From the sequence record PQ417132.1: a DNA stretch of 44,205 nucleotides; one strand, given 5' to 3'. Within the stretch, counting starts at the first letter, position 1. Each line of letters starts with the position of its first letter. This document shows positions 3,151 to 33,974 of this stretch, piece by piece. Source of the stretch: Escherichia phage vB_VIPECOTH07. The translations under genes and the position numbers were made by a program. Under the pieces are notes generated by a model. It ran no database searches and had not been told where the DNA came from. It saw nothing but the letters and a program-made list of their open reading frames with translations.

Positions 3151-3636
3151 TCATTTAACAGCCCTCCCGATAGCCTCCGCCTCCTGCCACTGTTTACCGT
3201 CGAACAACGCCAGACGACCCGCAGTACGGCGACGCAGACCAAGTAACGGTTTACCATTCTGGTTGATGAACAGCGCCAGCTTAGTCCGCAGCGTCGTGAT
3301 ATCACCAGAACGCAGCGCCTTACCCGTGCCCGTAGTAGCAGCAATCACGCCAGCGCCCGCGTTATAGACCAGGTCGCAAACAGCATCAAACTGCGCCTGC
3401 GTCAGCGAATGGTGTGCAGCCGCGCCAACCGCAGCTACGGCTTTAGCCATATCACGGTTCAGTAACAGGAGGCCTTGCCCGGGGGTGATAGTCTGCCCCG
3501 CCTTAACATGCGGACCATAGCTTCCGTAGCCAATAGTCAGGTACTTCTCGTTCGGCGTAGCACGATACGCAGTTCCGCGGAATCCCTCAAATGCGGCGGT
3601 AAAATGCAATCCATTATCTGAAATGTTTCGAGACAC
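3151..3636 (-). CDS. endolysin, lysozyme (glycoside hydrolase family 24-like)
   Basis: FEGFRGTAYRATPNEKYLTIGYGSYGPH matches the phage lysozyme catalytic region. Start placed at GTG 3636 preceded by GGAGGA with 7-nt spacer (ORF track 3151..3687). No N-terminal hydrophobic segment. Confidence 0.8.
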   Translation of the reverse strand: MSRNISDNGLHFTAAFEGFRGTAYRATPNEKYLTIGYGSYGPHVKAGQTITPGQGLLLLNRDMAKAVAAVGAAAHHSLTQAQFDAVCDLVYNAGAGVIAATTGTGKALRSGDITTLRTKLALFINQNGKPLLGLRRRTAGRLALFDGKQWQEAEAIGRAVK

Positions 3637-3886
3637 GCTTATGTCCTCCGTATGACAGCCACGCCTGGCGAATCTGGCGCAGCGCAACTAATGTGATTAA
3701 TGTCTCTGGCAACGTGGGTGACATGCTGCCCTGTAACAGGTGGATACATCCAGCGGCGCAGACGATAGCAGTCAGGATATAAAGCACCCGACCAAATAAT
3801 CCGTCGTCCACACTGGGATGGTACACATTAAACAGCGATGTGCCTCCGATTGCCAGCATACCGCCGAACCAGAATAATTCATTCAT
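3614..3886 (-). CDS. small membrane protein in lysis cassette (second holin or antiholin candidate)
   Basis: ATG at 3886 within ATGAATGA overlap with holin stop; hydrophobic segments FWFGGMLAIGGTSLF and VLYILTAIVCAAGCIHLL. 3' end overlaps endolysin start by 23 nt. Confidence 0.5.
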   Translation of the reverse strand: MNELFWFGGMLAIGGTSLFNVYHPSVDDGLFGRVLYILTAIVCAAGCIHLLQGSMSPTLPETLITLVALRQIRQAWLSYGGHKRVSKHFR

Positions 3887-4187
3887 CTGGGCCTCCTCGA
3901 CGTGAGATGTATTCTCCGGCGACGATACCGGAGAGACGGGAATAAATAGGCATCCAGAGAATAGCAATAATGAAGCCCAACCCAGCGATTTCACGGTCGC
4001 CCGTGATACCGAACCATTGAGCTGCGAGAGGTGCGCCAAATACGGCGCAGGCGAAACCAGTAGCGATGAAGCAGAAGCCGTCGATAGGGCCAGAAATAGC
4101 GGACTTATGTTGTCGTAGTCCGATTACCCCTCCGGCTAGTGCGGCAGCGAGAAGCCACCCCGTCACTGTTTCAGTAAATTTATCCAA
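3879..4187 (-). CDS. holin (three predicted transmembrane segments)
   Basis: TTG start at 4187 preceded by GGAGGA 6 nt upstream; hydrophobic stretches TGWLLAAALAGGVIGL, FCFIATGFACAVFGAPLAAQWF, IAGLGFIIAILWMPIY; immediately upstream of endolysin. Confidence 0.65.
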   Translation of the reverse strand: MDKFTETVTGWLLAAALAGGVIGLRQHKSAISGPIDGFCFIATGFACAVFGAPLAAQWFGITGDREIAGLGFIIAILWMPIYSRLSGIVAGEYISRRGGPDE

Positions 4188-5414: not shown

Positions 5415-5443
5415 ATAGTAGCCTATTCTATCTTAGTGTGCAA
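5415..5443 (-). promoter_or_regulatory. promoter TTGCAC-N17-TACTAT with dyad AATAG-N4-CTATT
   Basis: Minus-strand reading CTTGCACACTAAGATAGAATAGGCTACTATTCATTTA; dyad overlaps -10. Confidence 0.5.
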
Positions 5444-6910: not shown

Positions 6911-6939
6911 ATAGTAACCTATTATGTTGGGGTGTGCAA
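6911..6939 (-). promoter_or_regulatory. promoter TTGCAC-N17-TACTAT with dyad AATAG-N4-CTATT
   Basis: Minus-strand reading CTTGCACACCCCAACATAATAGGTTACTATTCACTTA; near-identical to copies at 5415..5443 and 30307..30335. Confidence 0.55.
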
Positions 6940-25874: not shown

Positions 25875-26356
25875 ATTCGTGGAAACGTTGATTGTGCGGT
25901 TCCGTAGGCTTTAAGGAAACTACCCAGACAATCCCCGTAACAGCCGTACAAATCTGGCAGATTGTTAATCAGGCACTGGTTCTCAAGGTCCTGGAACGGC
26001 GATTTCTCGGCGGTTGCCGTGAAGGTAATTGTCCAGTTAATCCCGTCTTCGGTGGACTCAGCGATAGTGGACGTAATGGTTACCTGATAATCTTCGATGC
26101 CCATGCCGAAGTCGTGCGCCATCCAGAAACTTGACGCACCGCCATCGACTTTCTCAAGGAACGACAGGAACGCCTGCCGCCCTAGTGCTGAGGTAATCAG
26201 GGTTACGCTTATTGGGAACACGTCGTAATACGTGTCGCGCCCCTGGCGCACTCCGCCGCCAGCTAAATCAACGCTCCAGACGTTGTTACGTCGGGTCATT
26301 GAGTAGCCTTTCGACACCACCGGCTTTAAACTTGCTGGAAATTTCAAAGAAGACAT
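25856..26356 (-). CDS. minor / distal tail protein (M-like, by position)
   Basis: ATG at 26356 with AGGAG upstream; follows tape measure gene apart from the inserted plus-strand gene. Confidence 0.4.
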   Translation of the reverse strand: MSSLKFPASLKPVVSKGYSMTRRNNVWSVDLAGGGVRQGRDTYYDVFPISVTLITSALGRQAFLSFLEKVDGGASSFWMAHDFGMGIEDYQVTITSTIAESTEDGINWTITFTATAEKSPFQDLENQCLINNLPDLYGCYGDCLGSFLKAYGTAQSTFPRIWDPMQ

Positions 26357-26391
26357 GGCAGGATACTCCTATTAGTTTAGGAGATACTAAC

Positions 26392-27042
26392 ATGATGCCA
26401 ACCGAAAAAGTAGCCAAGAGCATGTGGCTGCGTGCGAATTATCCTGCGAACAAAAGCAGCAAAACTAAGCGTGCAACTATATGCGATTTTGGCATAAATG
26501 ACGCCGATTATGTGGTTAGCCCCGAGATAAACGGCAACCGTGAGACGTGTCTGGCGTACGCTACATGGCGAGGGATGATCCAACGTTGCGTGGACGCCGA
26601 GTATAAAAACAAAAGGCCTGCGTACAGGGATGTAACTGTGTGGCATGGGTGGCAAAGGTTTATGTCCTTCCGTAGATGGTGGCTTTGTAATTATGTGGAG
26701 GGATGGGAGCTAGATAAGGATATATTCTCTGGTATTAATAAGGTATACAGCCCTACCACTTGCATCTTCATCCCTAAATGGCTGAATGTTTTCCTAAAGG
26801 AAAAGAAAAATAGGGGAACACCTACGGGTGTTTTTTATGAAGAATCTAGAGGTAAATTTAAAGCCTCAGTGAGCTATGATAAAAAAACTATTAATCTAGG
26901 ACGTTTTGAAACTCAGGAAGAAGCGCTAGATGCTTACATTGCTGAAAAGATAAGGGTGGCGGAATCAAGAAGATGTGAGATAGAGGCGATAAGGGAAGGT
27001 ATGTTCGACCGCGTTATCGCCTTGATAAAAGAGGGTCGTTAG
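26392..27042 (+). mobile_element. AP2-domain protein, probable free-standing homing-endonuclease-like gene
   Basis: C-terminal TGVFYEESRGKFKASVSYDKKTINLGRFETQEEALDAYIAEKIR is an AP2 domain. ATG at 26392 with AGGAG upstream (track 26212). Opposite strand inside the tail operon. No HNH or GIY-YIG catalytic motif confirmed. Confidence 0.5.
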
Positions 27043-27058: not shown

Positions 27059-27088
27059 ATAAGGCCCTTTCGGGCCTTTATGTTATTA
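27059..27088. terminator. bidirectional hairpin terminator
   Basis: AAGGCCC-tttc-GGGCCTT between convergent gene 26392..27042 (+) and tape measure (-). Confidence 0.55.
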
Positions 27089-29425
27089 CTTAAAGCCAGG
27101 TGCGTTTCTTGTAGCCTTCCTCGCTTTCGATATTTTGCTGTTGCTGTTCTGTAGCGAAGCAGCCACCTGCTCTTCTATGATGATGCGCAAACGGCCTTCG
27201 TCATCCTGCTCGGTAGATACGTTGCCAATCTGACTCGATGTGTTATTTACAATGGTAACATTAGATGGGCCAGAAGAAGACCCATTTTGCCCCATAATTT
27301 CTTTCATCTGCTGCGCAGTTCGTACGCGCGATGCACCAGCAGGCATGATAACTTCTGGTTTACCGCGTTCGGCGATGGTGGAAGCCTGCCCTGCGGATAA
27401 CTGTCCGCCCTGCTCACGAGCGGACCTGATAGCGGAAATCTGCGCCATACCCGCCCCGACGGCAGCGGCAGCGGCTACAGGGGCCAGGAACGGGCCGACT
27501 ACAGGGATAGCCGCCGTTGATTTATACGCCTCAATAGCTGCGGTGTACGTGGCAATAGTGGCCTGTACGATAGCGAATGCCTTATACGCGCCAGAAGCCT
27601 CACCCAACGCAGACCCGATGTTTGAGGCCATGTTGCCAAAGGCCGTTGCCGTTGCGTCGGCGCGCTTCGTAGCATACTGCTCATTGATAGCGTTAAGCGC
27701 CGCCTGATACTGTTTCTCGCTAATCAAACCCTGCTCGCGGTACTTATCCGCTACCGCCAGTTTCTGCTGTTCCTGGATGTCGAGAAGCTCAAGCTCGGTG
27801 GCATTCTGACCCATAATCTGGGCCATGAAGTCTTCACCTTTCTGGTTCTTTTCCTGCCGTTCTTTCTCTCGCTTGGCGAGTTCTTCCTGTCGTGCGGTGT
27901 CAGCTTCCAGCATAATTTGAGTTTTGGCGTTCTCGTATTGCTGGTCGCTAAGAAGCTGGTTGCCGTAAAACTCTTGTAGCTTGGTTAACTGTTGCTCCTG
28001 ATTAGCTTCTATTTTCTGGAATACATCATCATTGAGATGAATAGACTGGTAGTAGAAATCCTCAGCGGCTTTCTTCTGGCGCTCGAACGCATCCGCGGCT
28101 TTCTTAGCGGCTTTTGCCCCCGCGCTATCATCCTCGGACCCGCCACCAGTACCGGTTACCTTAAATTTACTAAGCCCTTCTGCCTTAGCGGCTTCTTTGT
28201 CGATGTCATATGCCGCGCGTTTAAGCGCGACGATATTTTGCTGAGCCTCCACCTGTTCGCGGAAACTTTTACGGGTCAGGTCCGCAACATCACGCTGAGT
28301 ATCCAGTGCCATACCCAGCTGGAAGTTAATGTTTTTTGCTACGTCTACCGATTCACCTGGTGTGAAGGCTGCTTTCACCAACCGGCCAGCATCCTGCGCC
28401 CCTTTAACCATATCTTCAAAGAAACGCTCCATCGCGGTAAATTCTTCCGCGATGAAATCTAGCGCATCGGCGGCTGATTCTGCGATGGTTGTCGCCGTTT
28501 GTTCACCGCTATCGGTGATACTTTTACTGCTAAAATCCCAGAGTTCATTCAGCCCGTTTATCGCGTCGCCTACGAAACCAAATGCCGCGTCGAACGACAT
28601 CTCTATCGCGCTTCCTACTTCCGACGCGATGTCACCCCACATACGCATCTCTGCGGCAAGTTCACCGGATGCAACCTGTGCGTTAAGTTCCTGGATTAAA
28701 TCATCGATGTACCGGATAGGTTCCGCAAGAGCACCAACATCAAGGCTGGTAGCCAGTGTCATTTTTAACTGCGACCAGGAATCGCTGGCACTGGCGATAG
28801 CCCCATTAAGCGTGTTAGCCTGGTCCGCCATAGCCCCAGCGAAGTTTACGTTACCAATGTTGAGCAGGTATTGCTCGATATCGGCAGCGCTCTTCTTAAC
28901 CACCGTAGTAGTGCCCTGGAATGTAAATTCAACATCGTCTTTGTTCTGCTTAGCCTTGATGCCGAATTCTTTAAGGCGCTCAAATTCAAACGTACTGGCG
29001 TCCGCAACGGCCTCAATCATCTGATTTAGGTCTTTACCCATAGCAGCGGCGGTGTTGCCATAGGAGCGCAACGCTTCTTCTGATGGTGTAAGACCAAGCG
29101 CCACAAGTTTACGGAATCCCTCTACTGCCTGTTCAAGACCATACGGAGTGTCGCGCGCGAAGTCTTGCAGGATGCTTAATGCCTGTCTTGCCCCCTGCGT
29201 GCTTCCGGTTAGTGTTTTCAGGCTGGCGGACATCTTATCCAGTTGCCGTTGGGAGTCTACTAGTTCCTGTGCGGCCTTGTACGCGGTAGCAGCGACGATG
29301 GAAGCGAGGCCCGCTACCGCGGCCCCGGCTACCTTTGCGGACTTGGAAAGGTTATCAAGACGGTCTGAGGTAGCTTTCGCGCCTTGCTCTGATACTTTTA
29401 CAACTAAACTAGCTACATCAGCCAT
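27086..29425 (-). CDS. tail tape measure protein
   Basis: 779 aa, Ala/Gln-rich coiled-coil composition, follows tail chaperone genes. Confidence 0.85.
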   Translation of the reverse strand: MADVASLVVKVSEQGAKATSDRLDNLSKSAKVAGAAVAGLASIVAATAYKAAQELVDSQRQLDKMSASLKTLTGSTQGARQALSILQDFARDTPYGLEQAVEGFRKLVALGLTPSEEALRSYGNTAAAMGKDLNQMIEAVADASTFEFERLKEFGIKAKQNKDDVEFTFQGTTTVVKKSAADIEQYLLNIGNVNFAGAMADQANTLNGAIASASDSWSQLKMTLATSLDVGALAEPIRYIDDLIQELNAQVASGELAAEMRMWGDIASEVGSAIEMSFDAAFGFVGDAINGLNELWDFSSKSITDSGEQTATTIAESAADALDFIAEEFTAMERFFEDMVKGAQDAGRLVKAAFTPGESVDVAKNINFQLGMALDTQRDVADLTRKSFREQVEAQQNIVALKRAAYDIDKEAAKAEGLSKFKVTGTGGGSEDDSAGAKAAKKAADAFERQKKAAEDFYYQSIHLNDDVFQKIEANQEQQLTKLQEFYGNQLLSDQQYENAKTQIMLEADTARQEELAKREKERQEKNQKGEDFMAQIMGQNATELELLDIQEQQKLAVADKYREQGLISEKQYQAALNAINEQYATKRADATATAFGNMASNIGSALGEASGAYKAFAIVQATIATYTAAIEAYKSTAAIPVVGPFLAPVAAAAAVGAGMAQISAIRSAREQGGQLSAGQASTIAERGKPEVIMPAGASRVRTAQQMKEIMGQNGSSSGPSNVTIVNNTSSQIGNVSTEQDDEGRLRIIIEEQVAASLQNSNSKISKARKATRNAPGFK

Positions 29426-29782: not shown

Positions 29783-30199
29783 CTACTTTTCCTGCAATTG
29801 GTGAAGCTGTTCGTTGTGGAAAACAACAACGTGTTCAGCGAGGCGTTTATATTGTGAGAAAAGAGTGTTCAGGTTCTCTTTATTAAATTCATCGTCGAGA
29901 CTCCAACCGTTAACCAGTTCAAGTGCTAACTGGCGGTTAAGGTCCGTCGCGGCGTCTTCCATCTTAATATTGTATTCCGAGAAATCTTTCAGTTCCTCAC
30001 ATTTATCACGAAGCGGTTTCAATTTACCTAATGCCGCGCGGTACGCAAGTGTAAACGCCCTCATAGCTTTAACGGCAACGTCTGCCTCCGGTGAAACAAC
30101 GTTCAGCCACTCCCCTGAATCGGTGCCGTCTTTCAGTGGTATTGGCATACGGGCGCCTTTTTCTGCCTCAGCTTCGTAATAAAAATCAGAAAGTTTCAT
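29783..30199 (-). CDS. tail assembly chaperone (G-like)
   Basis: 138-aa acidic protein immediately upstream of tape measure; ATG at 30199. Confidence 0.5.
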   Translation of the reverse strand: MKLSDFYYEAEAEKGARMPIPLKDGTDSGEWLNVVSPEADVAVKAMRAFTLAYRAALGKLKPLRDKCEELKDFSEYNIKMEDAATDLNRQLALELVNGWSLDDEFNKENLNTLFSQYKRLAEHVVVFHNEQLHQLQEK

Positions 30200-30306
30200 T
30201 CTTTAATCCTTTGGTTAAGAGGTTACTGGTTAAGGTTAATGCGCCAGACGGGAACCACCCGCTTTTCGTGTGCGACACTAGGCGCAAAATAATTCTAACA
30301 CATTAC

Positions 30307-30335
30307 TTGCACACCCCAACATAATAGGATACTAT
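30307..30335 (+). promoter_or_regulatory. promoter TTGCAC-N17-TACTAT with dyad AATAG-N4-CTATT
   Basis: ACTTGCACACCCCAACATAATAGGATACTATTCACTTA; near-identical to the minus-strand copies at 5415 and 6911; SD AGGAG then ATG 30377. Confidence 0.6.
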
Positions 30336-30348
30336 TCACTTACACCAA
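30321..30348 (-). promoter_or_regulatory. candidate divergent promoter for tail chaperone operon (TTGGTG-N16-TATTAT)
   Basis: Reverse strand of the same element reads GTGTAAGTGAATAGTATCCTATTATGTT, resembling the 10371 and 13360 promoters; lies upstream of gene 30199 on minus strand. Confidence 0.35.
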
Positions 30349-30376
30349 CAATGTTAACTCAAACAGGAGCTACCCC

Positions 30377-30568
30377 ATGACAGGTATTACTATGTTCTTC
30401 TTAATCATTATCGTTTTAGTTTATTTTATCCCATTTCTCGTGGCGCATATGCGCAACCATAAAGCTAAATTAGCGATATTCATGGCTAATCTGTTTCTCG
30501 GTTGGGTTCTGCTGCCGTGGGTATTTATTTTAATCTGGGCGTGCAACTCGAATGTCAAAGAGAAGTGA
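30377..30568 (+). CDS. small two-TM membrane protein, superinfection-immunity (Imm)-like
   Basis: IPFLVAHMRNHKAKLAIFMANLFLGWVLLPWVFILIWAC matches the Imm-like consensus pattern from memory; two hydrophobic helices. Confidence 0.45.
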   Translation: MTGITMFFLIIIVLVYFIPFLVAHMRNHKAKLAIFMANLFLGWVLLPWVFILIWACNSNVKEK

Positions 30569-30606
30569 GCTAGTATAGGACAAATCCTAAACACGAGGAA
30601 GTAAGC

Positions 30607-31737
30607 ATGGCCCAGAAGAAAATAACCGACGAACAGTTACAGGAAGAATTGAACGCCGGGATGAAGAATGTAGACATCGCCCGTAAATACGGCATCTCAG
30701 ACCGAGTTATTCGTATCCGTAAAGCGAAGCTGGCTAAGAAAGGTGTAGGCCACGGGCGTGACGTTAGCCACCTTGTACCAGATGGCTACAAGATTAAAGG
30801 CACATCGTCGCTGGTTGATGAGTTCGGCAACACTAAGTTGCAATGGGTTAAGACCGACACCGATGCCGAACGTCAGGTCGAGTTGATGAAAGCCATAATC
30901 GAGGGCATGAAGTCGGAGATTACCCCCGTTGCTCCTGTTAAAGCCGTTCGCGCCAAACGGGACGACAAGCTACTCAACCTTTACACTGTGTCTGATTTCC
31001 ATCTCGGTATGCTGGCCTGGGCCGACGAGAGTGGCGACGACTGGGATATGAAGATTGCAGAAGACCTGTTCTCCCGTTGGTTCGATGCGGCATTCCAGAA
31101 AGCACCGGATGCGGGGACTGGGGTTATTAACCTGCTGGGCGACTTCGCGCACTTCGATAGTCTGGTTGCCGTTACACCTGCAAGCGGTCACGCCCTTGAC
31201 GCCGACACCCGTTACCAGAAACTTGTCCGCTACATGATTCGCATGGTCCGCCGTGTTGTCGATATGGCGCTGGTTAAGCATAAAAATGTTCGCTTGCTTA
31301 TCGTGCAAGGGAATCACGACGAAAGTGGCATGATTTGGTTGGCTGAGATGTTCAGTACGCTGTATGACAATGAGCCGCGTGTGTTCGTCGATACGTCACC
31401 GGATGTTTACAAGATGGTGCAACACGGCAAAACGACGCTGTTCTTCCATCACGGGCATAAAGCACGATTCGACGCTATTGAACCTGTTATGATTGCCAAG
31501 TTCCGTAAAGCGTTCGGCGAGAGTGTTTACAGCTACGCCCACGTAGGCCATCTGCACCACCAGAAGATTGTAGAAAGCCGTAACATGATTGTTGAGCAAC
31601 ACCGCACCTTAGCGGCTAAAGACGCCTACGCCTCCCGCGGAGGTTGGATGTCGGGCCGTAGTGCAAATGTAATTACTTATAGCGCCGAATTTGGCGAGGT
31701 CGCACGTTTAACTATTTCACCGGAGATGCTGGGATGA
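30607..31737 (+). CDS. HTH-fused calcineurin-like metallophosphoesterase (SbcD/Mre11-like motifs)
   Basis: N-terminal HTH KNVDIARKYGISDRVIRIRK; phosphoesterase motifs VSDFHLG, LGDFAHFD, QGNHDE, FFHHGH, VGHLHH. Confidence 0.75.
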   Translation: MAQKKITDEQLQEELNAGMKNVDIARKYGISDRVIRIRKAKLAKKGVGHGRDVSHLVPDGYKIKGTSSLVDEFGNTKLQWVKTDTDAERQVELMKAIIEGMKSEITPVAPVKAVRAKRDDKLLNLYTVSDFHLGMLAWADESGDDWDMKIAEDLFSRWFDAAFQKAPDAGTGVINLLGDFAHFDSLVAVTPASGHALDADTRYQKLVRYMIRMVRRVVDMALVKHKNVRLLIVQGNHDESGMIWLAEMFSTLYDNEPRVFVDTSPDVYKMVQHGKTTLFFHHGHKARFDAIEPVMIAKFRKAFGESVYSYAHVGHLHHQKIVESRNMIVEQHRTLAAKDAYASRGGWMSGRSANVITYSAEFGEVARLTISPEMLG

Positions 31738-32219
31738 AAGATATTGTAATTTTCGATTTAGACGGGACATTGGCGGATGGGACACATCGTTTGCACCTGC
31801 TGCCGAAAGATAACTACAACGAAACATGGGCGTGGAAGCCCTTTAACATGGCGTGCAAAGATGATGAACCAATTAGAGATAACATAGAACTGTGTAACGC
31901 CCTCAATCGTCGCTATGCCGTTATCATTTTAACGGGCCGTAGTGATGATGCAGAAAAAGAAACCAGAATGTGGTTGCAGCGCCACCGCGTCGAATTTTAT
32001 CAGCTAATCATGCGCAGCAAACACGACAACAGAAAAGACATCGTAATTAAAGAAGAGGTGTTGCGTGCTATTGGGCTGGAAAGAATCTTGTGTGCATTCG
32101 ACGACTCGCCAGCGGTAATAAAGCATTTCCGCGAACTCGGCATAACCACTCACGCGGTTACTGAATACGACTGTAACGGGAACTCTACACACTTAAAACC
32201 ACATGGGAGCGATAAATAA
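31734..32219 (+). CDS. HAD-superfamily phosphatase (polynucleotide 3'-phosphatase-like)
   Basis: Motif I IVIFDLDGTLADG; remaining pattern (ILTGRSDDAEKE...NRKDIVIKEEV...AFDDSPAVI) resembles the phosphatase domain of phage polynucleotide kinase-phosphatase as recalled. Confidence 0.65.
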   Translation: MKDIVIFDLDGTLADGTHRLHLLPKDNYNETWAWKPFNMACKDDEPIRDNIELCNALNRRYAVIILTGRSDDAEKETRMWLQRHRVEFYQLIMRSKHDNRKDIVIKEEVLRAIGLERILCAFDDSPAVIKHFRELGITTHAVTEYDCNGNSTHLKPHGSDK

Positions 32220-32773
32220 TGGCTAAGGTAATTATTCTTAATGGCCCTGCGGGTTGCGGGAAAGACACGCTTGCTATGGCACTGGTAGAAATGGGCTTTG
32301 CGAAAGGAACTACCAGTTTCAAGAATCCGATGTTCAATATCGCTATGGCTGCGTTAGGCCCGGATGCTTACCACGAGTTTCTCGACGGCTACGACGACCG
32401 GGCCAGGAAAGAAAAGCCAGAAGGTTTCCTTAATGGGTTGTCGCGCCGTCGGTTCATGATTGCTATCTCTGAACAATTCATTAAACCGGCCCTCGGCAGC
32501 GATTATTTCGGTAAATATCTCGCTGAAAACTTGCCTGACGGCGACGAAGTTTTTGTAGTGTCCGACGGTGGATTCGCCAGTGAAGTGGTCCCTATCGTCG
32601 CCGCTGGGCATGACGTAAGAATTGTTCGCTTGCACAGAGACGGCTATACGTTTGAAGGGGACAGCCGTGGCTATCTGTATGGCGTTGATGGTGTAAAAGA
32701 TTACGACACCTACATCATACCAGGTGACGTTAAATCGAACGTTATAGACATTGCTTTAAAATTAGGTTTGTAG
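32219..32773 (+). CDS. P-loop kinase (dNMP kinase-like or polynucleotide kinase-like)
   Basis: Walker A GPAGCGKDT; GKD variant and downstream pattern recall phage dNMP kinases. Confidence 0.6.
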   Translation: MAKVIILNGPAGCGKDTLAMALVEMGFAKGTTSFKNPMFNIAMAALGPDAYHEFLDGYDDRARKEKPEGFLNGLSRRRFMIAISEQFIKPALGSDYFGKYLAENLPDGDEVFVVSDGGFASEVVPIVAAGHDVRIVRLHRDGYTFEGDSRGYLYGVDGVKDYDTYIIPGDVKSNVIDIALKLGL

Positions 32774-32775
32774 GG

Positions 32776-32804
32776 AAAAGGCCCCTTTCGGGGCCTTAGT
32801 TTTA
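32776..32804. terminator. bidirectional rho-independent terminator
   Basis: AAGGCCCC-tttc-GGGGCCTT then TTTTA; terminates the plus-strand cassette and, on minus strand, the major tail gene whose stop overlaps the T-run. Confidence 0.7.
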
Positions 32805-33974
32805 CGCGTAACTAATACGTTGAATTACGATAGACGACTGGTACTGATTGCCTGTGGACTGTCCTTCTATGCGCTGAGTGATTGACTCAGGGCCACCAAT
32901 CTCAGGTGTGACCGCCGTAAGCTCTGCGCGTTTAAAACTGAAAGACATAGCCCCGTTTACCCCCGCCAGAATGGAGTTAATCTCTACCTGCTGCTCGTTG
33001 ATAAACTTCTGAATCATCGCCATGTCATACAGCTTACCGGAGATGGAGAAGGTGTTAGCTGCACGGCTACGCTCCACAAACGCTACGTTAGTGTTACCAA
33101 GTTCGAACTGCGCGGACGCGCTGTTATCGTTGGTGATAGTCAGACTGTCGCAACGCAACGGCGTAGAGCCGTCGAACACGGAAACGTCAACCGAAGAGAA
33201 CGGCTCATCACCAAAAGTAACAGATGAGAAGTTGGAACCGGTCGGCGGCGTAGTGAGAATCTCCTGACTGCGACCGATGAATGGGAAGCTGCCAGTTACC
33301 ATCGCGTTAACAGCCTGTTCGATGGTAAAACCAGAAACTTCCACGCCTTTGGTTAACGTGTACGCGTCAGTACCGCCGCACTGGCCTTTGTACCAGGTAA
33401 GGATAGAGAACGTCTTACACGCGTTACCGGTTTCCAACGTGTCGCCAGTTTTAGCCTTACTAGTTTTTGTCTCGGTGGTCAGGGTGTGTTGGATGCCCGC
33501 ACCAGTAACAACCGTAGCCGTTACTGCAGTAACAATAAATGGTTTTGCGTTATCGCCTGTTAAATCGGTAAACGCAATCAGGTCGCCTACCCCAACTCCG
33601 TCAGTGATAAAACTGCCGGTAGCGCGTGTGAACGTCTTGCCCGCGGGTGCGACGGTAATCGATAGTCCTGACAGGGAAACGCCGGATTGCCACGTAGAGC
33701 CTAAAGCGCCCGCTAACCAGTCGTCCTGGCTTTTCGAGCTAAGCTCGATGGCGTATTCTCCACTAACCTGTTTGTTACCGGTGCGGATGGATGTAGTTTC
33801 ACGGCTGCCGTCCAGTTCGTTGGATGTCAGCGTGTCACGGGTAATCGCGGGAACGCCACCCGTGTTACGCAACGGCGACCATACCGGGTTAGTCGGTGTT
33901 ACGCCGGGGGTAGTTTCCGCCACATAGAATTGCGCGGTATTCGCGCCCTTAAAAGGAGTTGTAGCCATATTCAC
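32802..33974 (-). CDS. major tail protein (putative)
   Basis: 390-aa Thr/Ser/Gly-rich protein downstream of head-tail joining genes and followed by a terminator. Confidence 0.55.
   Translation of the reverse strand: MNMATTPFKGANTAQFYVAETTPGVTPTNPVWSPLRNTGGVPAITRDTLTSNELDGSRETTSIRTGNKQVSGEYAIELSSKSQDDWLAGALGSTWQSGVSLSGLSITVAPAGKTFTRATGSFITDGVGVGDLIAFTDLTGDNAKPFIVTAVTATVVTGAGIQHTLTTETKTSKAKTGDTLETGNACKTFSILTWYKGQCGGTDAYTLTKGVEVSGFTIEQAVNAMVTGSFPFIGRSQEILTTPPTGSNFSSVTFGDEPFSSVDVSVFDGSTPLRCDSLTITNDNSASAQFELGNTNVAFVERSRAANTFSISGKLYDMAMIQKFINEQQVEINSILAGVNGAMSFSFKRAELTAVTPEIGGPESITQRIEGQSTGNQYQSSIVIQRISYA

Follow-up and report, generated by a model that had tools for sequence, protein, structure and literature searches.

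We analyzed a four-gene cassette in the sequenced genome of Escherichia phage vB_VIPECOTH07 (record PQ417132.1). The whole stretch of DNA examined, hereafter the window, comprises 44,205 nucleotides (nt) and is apparently a complete genome. The cassette (30377-32773) lies on the plus strand and is embedded in a tail module encoded on the minus strand; both the open reading frame (ORF) list and the sequence agree with a first-pass annotation of the window, made from the letters alone, which had placed four plus-strand genes between tail genes of opposite orientation. The cassette genes and their immediate flanks are as follows.

29783-30199, minus strand: tail assembly chaperone (PF08748), flanking gene
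30377-30568, plus strand: gene 1, Imm-type membrane protein, 63 amino acids (aa)
30607-31737, plus strand: gene 2, helix-turn-helix (HTH)-metallophosphoesterase (MPE), 376 aa
31734-32219, plus strand: gene 3, stand-alone HAD phosphatase of the T4 Pnkp 3'-phosphatase type, 161 aa
32219-32773, plus strand: gene 4, P-loop kinase of the T4 gp1 deoxynucleoside monophosphate (dNMP) kinase family, 184 aa
32802-33974, minus strand: tail tube gene (PF18906), flanking gene

A megablast search with positions 30200-32900 matched 291 phage records and identified the window as a Kagunavirus (Guernseyvirinae) genome. The best match is Escherichia phage BUCT825 (96.4% identity across the whole query), followed by K1G, K1ind1-3, Golestan, RP180, and other Kagunavirus. 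All motifs quoted in the first-pass annotation, namely DFHLG, GDFAHFD, GNHDE, HHGH, GHLHH, DLDGT, and the P-loop GPAGCGKDT, were seen in the translations. Good Shine-Dalgarno sequences precede genes 1 and 2 (AGGAG for gene 1), and the stop and start codons of genes 2 and 3 (ATGA, 31734-31737) and of genes 3 and 4 (TAATG, 32217-32221) overlap, which implies translational coupling of the three enzymes.

The cassette had initially not been recognized as a described system. This view was not sustained, since public Kagunavirus records carry it already annotated in dozens of published genomes, and a string of MPE, polynucleotide kinase (PNK), and dNMP kinase genes has been noted in Drexlerviridae (PMC13164509). 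In the public records, gene 1 is labelled superinfection immunity protein; the MPE is a metallophosphoesterase, a 'DNA repair exonuclease', or a 'DNA polymerase II small subunit'; the HAD gene is a polynucleotide kinase/phosphatase; and the kinase is a deoxynucleoside monophosphate kinase, an 'ATPase', or an 'ATP-binding protein'. Annotations of homologues are inconsistent and partly wrong: the MPE also appears as 'oxidoreductase' or 'transcriptional regulator', and the kinase as 'GTP-binding protein era', 'replication factor C large subunit', or 'phosphomevalonate kinase'. The locus and its families are already known; of value is an enzyme trio of fixed order that is found across unrelated lineages.

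The product of gene 2 belongs to a very large family. It matches phrog_704 with an E-value of 5e-166, and we found 4,631 homologous clusters at 50% identity (E <= 1e-3) as well as homologues in 2,049 phage records by tblastn; among the 150 homologues listed, nearly all are about 360-480 aa long. The diversity of the family is drawn from the 50%-cluster library, and a word-indexed homologue search gave near-identical sequences only. Scores against Metallophos and Metallophos_2 (21.4 bits vs 27 and 18.9 bits vs 21.5, respectively) are below the Pfam gathering scores, so membership in the superfamily rests on motifs and fold. All five MPE motifs (DxH, GD, GNH[D/E], H, and GHxH) are present. In an alignment of 38 homologues with 33-50% identity, D130, H132, G178, D179, N236, H237, H282, and H317 are invariant, and H182, D184, D238, H281, H284, and H315 (at least 90% for H315) are nearly so. 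A loss of catalytic residues on careful alignment, which had been considered as a possible objection, was not observed for the MPE; the metal ligands are invariant. These residues make up a complete active site of the binuclear metallophosphoesterase kind, in which motif II takes the GDxxH form.

The AlphaFold model of the MPE (pLDDT 88.6) has the alpha/beta-sandwich fold of this superfamily and contains the following parts, which bear out the earlier suggestion of an HTH fused to a phosphoesterase core with the full motif set.

Residues 8-44: three-helix HTH, weakly LuxR/GerE-like
Residues 45-60: disordered linker
Residues 61-104: beta-hairpin plus helix
Residues 119-376: binuclear core

In a fold search, the closest matches were the nucleases DP1, Mre11, and SbcD, which outranked LpxH, small phosphodiesterases, cyclic nucleotide phosphodiesterases, and protein phosphatases; a search of BFVD returned uncharacterized viral homologues only. 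Compared with Mre11/SbcD and DP1 (the archaeal PolD proofreading exonuclease), the phage protein shares the nuclease-type fold and has the GDxxH motif II. It differs in having no evident capping domain, in carrying an additional N-terminal module of HTH plus beta-hairpin, and in sequence similarity that is insignificant (E about 0.2). The cassette contains no Rad50/SbcC or DP2 partner, nor is Rad50/SbcC present among the large ORFs of the window. A role as cyclic nucleotide phosphodiesterase had also been thought conceivable, and nothing supports it: the nearest folds are DP1, Mre11, and SbcD, and the HTH is of the DNA-binding type.

In the literature, we found no experimental study of the HTH-MPE family or of the MPE-HAD-kinase trio. 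Two more distant proteins are informative. The MPE Gp48 of mycobacteriophage A10ZJ24 is expressed early, has phosphodiesterase and DNase activities that need intact MPE motifs, and degrades host genomic DNA both in vivo and in vitro (PMC12287305). Like gene 2, it is a phage-encoded MPE, with the differences that its motif I lies at D10, so that it has no N-terminal HTH extension, and that no HAD or kinase partners have been described for it; the relationship does not seem close, as Mycobacterium is outside the ten commonest organism names in our tblastn output. The second is the Pseudomonas putida MPE (PDB 6NVO), which passages of its report describe as a Mn-dependent DNA endonuclease from a conserved DNA-repair operon (Lhr-Core/MPE) that cuts DNA in both orientations and yields a mix of 3'-PO4 and 3'-OH ends (PMC7826289). 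Such mixed ends, as described in those passages, give a rationale for gene 3 as a 3'-phosphatase partner; if the phage MPE likewise left 3'-PO4 ends, the constant presence of a 3'-phosphatase gene next to it would be explained.

Gene 3 was assigned to the Pnkp-type HAD phosphatases, as the first-pass annotation had proposed, by a match to PF25109 (HAD_PNKP; 71 bits vs 27.6, E = 1.5e-19). Its sequence matches in the PDB are Capnocytophaga Pnkp1 (4xrp) and T4 Pnkp (5uj0/1ltq), a tblastn search from it reaches the pseT genes of T4-like phages, and the motifs DxDxT, S/T-G-R, RKD, and DD are aligned with those of Pnkp. The corresponding positions are as follows.

Gene 3 D8-x-D10-x-T: T4 Pnkp Asp165 and Asp167
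Gene 3 R19: T4 Pnkp position 176 (by spacing)
Gene 3 T67-G-R69: T4 Pnkp Ser211-Gly-Arg
Gene 3 lysine of RKD: T4 Pnkp Lys258
Gene 3 D123-D124: T4 Pnkp Asp277 and Asp278

The roles of Asp165, Asp167, Ser211, Lys258, and Asp278 in the T4 phosphatase have been summarized, as have its substrates, which include 3'-phosphorylated oligodeoxynucleotides and 3'-dNMPs (PMC3592404). Gene 3 thus has in common with T4 Pnkp/PseT the nucleophile and the acid of DxDxT, the S/T-G-R motif, the lysine of RKD, and the two metal-binding residues of DD. Unlike PseT, it is a stand-alone protein without a partner RNA ligase, and the kinase encoded downstream is of the gp1 type, whereas T4 has a Pnk domain upstream. 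No N-terminal Pnk-type kinase domain is fused to the 161-aa HAD domain; therefore, the common label 'polynucleotide kinase' is wrong for this ORF, and this widespread mis-annotation of a HAD-only protein can be corrected. Within Kagunavirus (loci L011-L026), the HAD gene falls into two allele classes with 83-86% and 97-99% identity to the window, beside an MPE gene with 94-99% identity throughout, which implies recombination inside the cassette.

Whether the kinase is a dNMP kinase or a polynucleotide kinase had been left as a point to check. Gene 4 matches phrog_139 with an E-value of 6.6e-44, over the same profile span as T4 gp1 (E = 1.8e-65; the gp1 query was verified by tblastn as 100% T4), and its fold is gp1-like, including the helical NMP-binding insert. 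The next fold matches are an archaeal adenylate-kinase relative and human phosphomevalonate kinase, and polynucleotide kinases of the Pnk/Clp1/Trl1 type are not the closest ones; PDB sequence and profile searches gave P-loop matches only. By family and modelled fold, gene 4 is predicted to be a gp1-type nucleotide (phosphate-acceptor) kinase and not a Pnk-type hydroxyl kinase. It shares PHROG 139 and the fold with T4 gp1 (PDB 1DEK) and differs from it in several respects: sequence identity is only 19%, gene 4 has 184 aa vs 241 aa in gp1, the DTRQ segment of gp1 is DGGF in gene 4, and members of the gene 4 family nearly always have a HAD phosphatase as partner, in contrast to gp1.

These assignments bear on RNA repair, in which the enzymes would act as T4 Pnkp and Rnl1 do and undo cleavage by anticodon nucleases. 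The HAD protein is homologous to the phosphatases of two enzymes, T4 Pnkp and the RNA-repair enzyme Pnkp1 of Capnocytophaga, which suits this idea. However, no RNA ligase is present among the assigned ORFs of the genome, the kinase is not Pnk-like, and the ligases adjacent to the trio in related loci (see below) are DNA ligases; moreover, healing of RNA ends would remove the substrates of host RtcB. We therefore rejected RNA repair, which the missing ligase and the kinase type leave nearly excluded.

The arrangement of the trio was then compared across 80 viral contigs fetched with the kinase as anchor, a redundant set with many weberviruses. The HAD gene lies upstream of the kinase on the same strand in 77 of these loci, and 55 contain the full MPE-HAD-kinase string; with Kagunavirus left out, the numbers are 61/64 and 39/64, respectively. 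The same translationally coupled order was found in at least five unrelated phage lineages, in two of which a DNA ligase comes next.

Kagunavirus: Imm - MPE - HAD - kinase, inside the tail module
Webervirus (Drexlerviridae): MPE - HAD - kinase, before the lysis genes
Eracentumvirus phiEa1H (Autographiviridae): exonuclease - endonuclease VII - MPE - HAD - kinase - DNA ligase
Gajwadongvirus ECBP5 (Autographiviridae): exonuclease - endonuclease VII - MPE - HAD - kinase - DNA ligase
Yersinia myovirus vB_YenM_574: MPE - HAD - kinase, before the portal gene

The ligase of phiEa1H and ECBP5 is ATP-dependent. In addition, the HAD gene is missing from the string of Proteus phage Pm5460 (MPE - kinase - ligase), a ligase adjoins the MPE in Campylobacter phage PC14, and a kinase homologue lies near thymidylate synthase in Vequintavirus. 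The analysis thus establishes the structure of the genes, their assignment to families and folds, the integrity of the catalytic motifs, the coupling within the operon, and a gene order conserved across unrelated phages.

The partnership is not universal. The MPE occurs alone, often at the boundary of the lysis genes, in Warwickvirus, Dhillonvirus, and Vibrio, Rhodobacter, Aeromonas, and Sulfitobacter phages. Phage T1 has a gap of about 490 bp, annotated as an HNH endonuclease, between HAD and kinase (L057, NC_005833, 5005-6513), and its pair is far from the MPE. Across Drexlerviridae, the MPE ('DNA repair exonuclease') is present in 508/522 genomes, where PNK and dNMP kinase are its commonest downstream neighbours, and the authors guessed that these genes 'enhance nucleotide supply' (PMC13164509). 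In Jerseyvirus, the location of the island is unchanged and Imm, the MPE (55-88% identity), and the terminator are retained, but a 76-aa ORF and a Rha/KilAC (Ant-like) protein stand in for HAD and kinase, with or without an HNH endonuclease. Such replacement loci include L009:4628-5642 and L010:3472-4997, and one genome has HNH_3 directly after the MPE. The kinase is more than 80% identical in only about 50 phage records, and 43 Salmonella-phage records match the kinase vs 373 for the MPE. The absence of HAD and kinase from Jerseyvirus and the few kinase records imply that the pair is dispensable for this type of virus, which fits an auxiliary, yield-boosting role. The description of the cassette as an accessory island is therefore only partly apt: the first slot alternates and the HAD-kinase pair is replaced in Jerseyvirus, whereas the island position, the first slot itself, and the MPE are fixed across Guernseyvirinae, within which the pair is Kagunavirus-specific.

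This distribution raises the possibility that the genes are merely co-located and serve no single pathway, with the HTH-MPE as a replication, recombination, or regulatory factor that possibly binds the conserved block upstream of the cassette, and HAD and kinase as a separate auxiliary pair inserted next to it by chance. The solitary MPE genes, the near-universal MPE of Drexlerviridae, the remote pair of T1, and the Jerseyvirus MPE without the pair all speak for such independence. Nevertheless, at least five unrelated lineages share both this gene order and the overlaps of stop and start codons, which makes chance insertion unlikely, and we regard this explanation as improbable.

We favour, tentatively and with somewhat less than even confidence, a reading in which the cassette is an independently transcribed, non-structural operon that combines a swappable first gene with a three-enzyme module for DNA breakdown and deoxynucleotide supply. 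The MPE reads as a nuclease because of its full motif set, its DP1/Mre11/SbcD-like fold, and its N-terminal HTH; the kinase reads as gp1-like because of the shared PHROG 139 and of the Vequintavirus homologue near thymidylate synthase. It would be an HTH-tethered, Mre11/DP1-like, probably Mn2+-dependent phosphodiesterase that cuts DNA, most likely the host chromosome or its fragments. The Pnkp-type HAD protein would strip 3'-phosphates from the ends or small products that such nucleases can leave, the gp1-type kinase would convert 5'-dNMPs into deoxynucleoside diphosphates (dNDPs), and host Ndk would turn these into deoxynucleoside triphosphates (dNTPs) for the family-A DNA polymerase of the phage. 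The substrates, the order of the reactions, the time of expression, and the host-DNA target are inferred. The genomic context agrees with such supply: the phage has its own replisome (its genes include a helicase-primase, a PD-(D/E)XK exonuclease, a gp2.5-like annealing protein, a family-A polymerase, a second helicase, and a primase), and no other nucleotide-metabolism enzymes were found among the assigned ORFs. Of the two options in the first-pass annotation, an end-healing or a nucleotide-pool toolkit, the latter is the better fit.

A functional parallel is the salvage set of T7, which comprises gp3 endonuclease, gp6 exonuclease, and gp1.7 nucleotide kinase, and whose exonuclease/endonuclease class of genes degrades host DNA. 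In both cases, nucleases would be followed by a dNMP kinase that feeds the phage polymerase, and the trio of phiEa1H and ECBP5 lies directly after an exonuclease and endonuclease VII. The protein families of nuclease and kinase are different in T7, and we know of no 3'-phosphatase in that phage.

Several observations weigh against the breakdown-and-supply reading. In simple salvage, it is not evident what a 3'-phosphatase next to a dNMP kinase would do, and a phosphatase acting on 5'-dNMPs would make the HAD-kinase pair futile. Drexlerviridae and Guernseyvirinae have the MPE as a core gene even without HAD and kinase nearby, and its primary role may lie elsewhere, for example in replication, recombination, or HTH-based regulation. 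The hhalign comparison of gene 4 with gp1 is partial, with a probability of 62.8% and an E-value of 7e-5 over the N-terminal 73 columns only. Adjacency to a DNA ligase in three lineages suits repair as well as salvage. Finally, degradation of host DNA by Kagunavirus is suggested only indirectly, through the sensitivity of Guernseyvirinae to the deoxydinucleotide-sensing Ec2ApeA.

The ligase neighbours lead to a repair function on DNA, in which the MPE would trim blocked or damaged ends, the HAD protein would remove 3'-phosphates, and the kinase would phosphorylate 5'-OH ends. Host LigA, or a phage ligase in some relatives, would then reseal phage DNA nicked by host nucleases or during replication and recombination. 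The HAD protein is specifically of the Pnkp polynucleotide 3'-phosphatase type, and the near-obligate HAD-kinase pairing (77/80) mirrors the two activities of T4 Pnkp. Ligase genes directly follow the trio in phiEa1H and ECBP5 (an ATP-dependent DNA ligase), form an MPE-kinase-ligase string in Pm5460, and stand beside the MPE in PC14; the Lhr-Core/MPE repair operon presumably also encodes a ligase. According to passages of its report, that operon is a conserved DNA-repair operon encoding a bacterial MPE (PMC7826289). The ligase of the SP6-like podoviruses, however, may be just a neighbouring DNA-metabolism gene, the fold of the kinase disfavours action on 5'-OH ends, and in the present genome no ligase occurs among the assigned large ORFs, in accordance with the initial observation. 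On this evidence, end-healing is the strongest of the alternatives, and we consider it unlikely.

Counter-defence was considered as well. Here the MPE would split deoxydinucleotides or cyclic nucleotides, and the HAD protein and kinase would clear triggers such as N6-methyldeoxyadenosine monophosphate (m6dAMP) of the Metis, PUA-Cal-HAD, and ApeA systems. Host systems do sense m6dAMP and 5'-phosphorylated deoxydinucleotides, which are released when phages degrade host DNA, and the Metis HAD protein MisB dephosphorylates m6dAMP, so that such chemistry can silence the alarm. Against this, Guernseyvirinae are still sensitive to Ec2ApeA and a Tunavirinae phage to PUA-Cal-HAD, and the HTH and nuclease-like fold of the MPE indicate polymeric DNA. 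Moreover, no sequence link to MisA/MisB was detected (gene 3 matches PF13419, the MisB family, only with E = 0.083), and PADLOC, whose library predates Metis, matched none of the four proteins; together with NCBIfam, it returned no informative matches for the cassette. To our knowledge, the known anti-CBASS and anti-Pycsar phosphodiesterases also use folds other than that of the MPE. Taken together, a counter-defence role appears highly improbable.

Two more speculative proposals, which we jointly hold to be distinctly improbable, go beyond these options. In the first, the trio would be a 'clean-up' device against products of host-chromosome degradation; its targets could be 5'-phosphorylated deoxydinucleotides, m6dAMP, and 3'-phosphorylated fragments, and it would both feed phage DNA synthesis and blunt the ApeA, Metis, and PUA-Cal-HAD sensors. 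In the second, the gp1-fold kinase would be a new 5'-OH polynucleotide kinase and would form with the HAD protein a split, order-swapped analogue of Pnkp.

The value of these data lies in the comparative result, i.e., a very large HTH-MPE family that is core to Drexlerviridae and Guernseyvirinae, and the residual question concerns the role of this widespread protein and its conserved partnership with a split phosphatase-kinase pair. The function of the trio would clarify dNTP supply or DNA upkeep in small lytic phages without nucleotide-biosynthesis genes, and is relevant to host defences, reported recently, that respond to the products released when phages degrade the chromosome.

The first gene of the cassette was examined separately. 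As the first-pass annotation had suggested, it is Imm-like: it matches PF14373 (Imm_superinfect; 51.8 bits vs a cut-off of 27.9, E = 7.7e-14) and phrog_1039 (E = 2.5e-23), and its product is a 63-aa membrane protein with two helices. T4 Imm, of 83 aa, is likewise a small protein with the PF14373 domain and two transmembrane helices. The difference is that gene 1 belongs to a siphovirus and is not the only occupant of its slot. In five of 16 Kagunavirus loci from IMG/VR, this slot is filled by an unrelated secreted protein of 108 aa with an N-terminal signal peptide and without a Pfam match (MRKLVLALGFMSFATFGSPCEQ...; loci L015, L017, L020, L023, and L025, e.g., L020:3997-4323), which may be an alternative exclusion or envelope protein. 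Where Imm is kept, its identity is 71-98% vs 94-99% for the MPE. Swapping of the first slot and divergence of Imm beside a uniform MPE argue for a moron-like position for envelope-acting proteins. Gene 1, an inner-membrane protein of the T4 Imm family, most likely has its role at the cell envelope, superinfection exclusion being one example, and the first slot is probably functionally separate from the enzymes. In passages of a transcriptome report on Kagunavirus K1B4, the Imm gene peaks alongside DNA polymerase and methylase genes; the time classes used there are unconventional and give weak evidence of timing, and the passages name no structural-gene class (PMC12645636).

Further examination of the non-coding sequences revealed a repeated promoter-like element, TTGCAC-N17-TACTAT, upstream of the cassette. 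The elements discussed below are as follows.

30307-30335, plus strand: promoter-like element heading the cassette, recognized by repetition, position, and conservation
6911-6939, minus strand: second copy, heading a minus-strand cluster of small ORFs
5415-5443, minus strand: third copy, upstream of small ORFs leading into the holin and endolysin genes
30205-30300, no strand assigned: conserved non-coding block between the tail-chaperone start codon and the cassette promoter, seen in a seven-region alignment
32778-32797, no strand assigned: GC-rich hairpin (predicted fold) between the convergent kinase (plus) and tail-tube (minus) genes

The 29-mer occurs three times in the window vs 0.23 expected, a number reached in 0/100 shuffles, and identity across the copies extends to CTTGCACAC...TAGGnTACTATTCAyTTA. 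It is kept upstream of the cassette in 14/19 related loci, whichever gene fills the first slot. The match to the sigma-70 consensus is weak (only 7/12 positions), and a generic sigma-70 and terminator scan, which overall found no more sites in the window than in shuffled sequence, called neither the promoter nor the terminator of the cassette. By its repetition, position, and conservation, 30307-30335 is a credible candidate for a phage promoter, as had been claimed, and its sharing with other non-structural units points to separate regulation of the cassette, which supports the breakdown-and-supply reading. The minus-strand ORFs behind the copies at 5415-5443 and 6911-6939 form a long run of small ORFs that continues into two holin genes and the endolysin gene (3151-4187); the element is therefore not obviously confined to 'early' genes. 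A sigma-70-like match on the minus strand (30329-30357, TTAACA-N17-TAGTAT, 9/12), a consensus match from the same scan without excess over shuffles, overlaps the -10 of the cassette promoter and suggests that the promoters of the cassette and of the chaperone/tape-measure genes overlap back to back and diverge.

At the other end, the hairpin AAGGCCCC-TTTC-GGGGCCTT (32778-32797) has a predicted energy of -20.4 kcal/mol (z = -2.7), with a conserved stem and a variable loop in Kagunavirus and Jerseyvirus. The tail-tube stop codon is 4 nt away, and partial T-runs flank the hairpin on both strands. The cassette had been credited with a terminator of its own; the stable hairpin and its conserved stem uphold a terminator, and the location between convergent genes indicates that it is probably a bidirectional one shared by both genes rather than the cassette's own.

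In an alignment of seven Guernseyvirinae intergenic regions, the block 30205-30300 hardly varies within Kagunavirus and has about 80% identity with Jerseyvirus, i.e., it is conserved at roughly the level of coding DNA. The block, whose core is GCGCCAGACGGGAACCACCCGCTTTTC, is unique in the window. No significant RNA fold was found for the block, and Rfam has no match in it or anywhere else in the window. A small upstream ORF of 37-41 aa, annotated in some records, was not accepted as a gene: Jerseyvirus does not keep its frame, and a frame-shifting indel in the alignment makes a conserved peptide unlikely. The block may serve in the regulation of both transcription units that diverge here.

A second plus-strand gene is also present in the minus-strand tail module. 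It encodes an HNH homing endonuclease (26212-27042; phrog_953, E = 9e-64) and, relative to the minus-strand tape-measure gene (27086-29425), is located downstream, on the side of the following tail genes. This gene is probably a mobile insertion; the HNH gene between HAD and kinase in T1 is another homing-endonuclease insertion, in that case into the pair itself. The HNH gene of the window has its own GC-rich, terminator-like hairpin with a T-run at 27061-27078.

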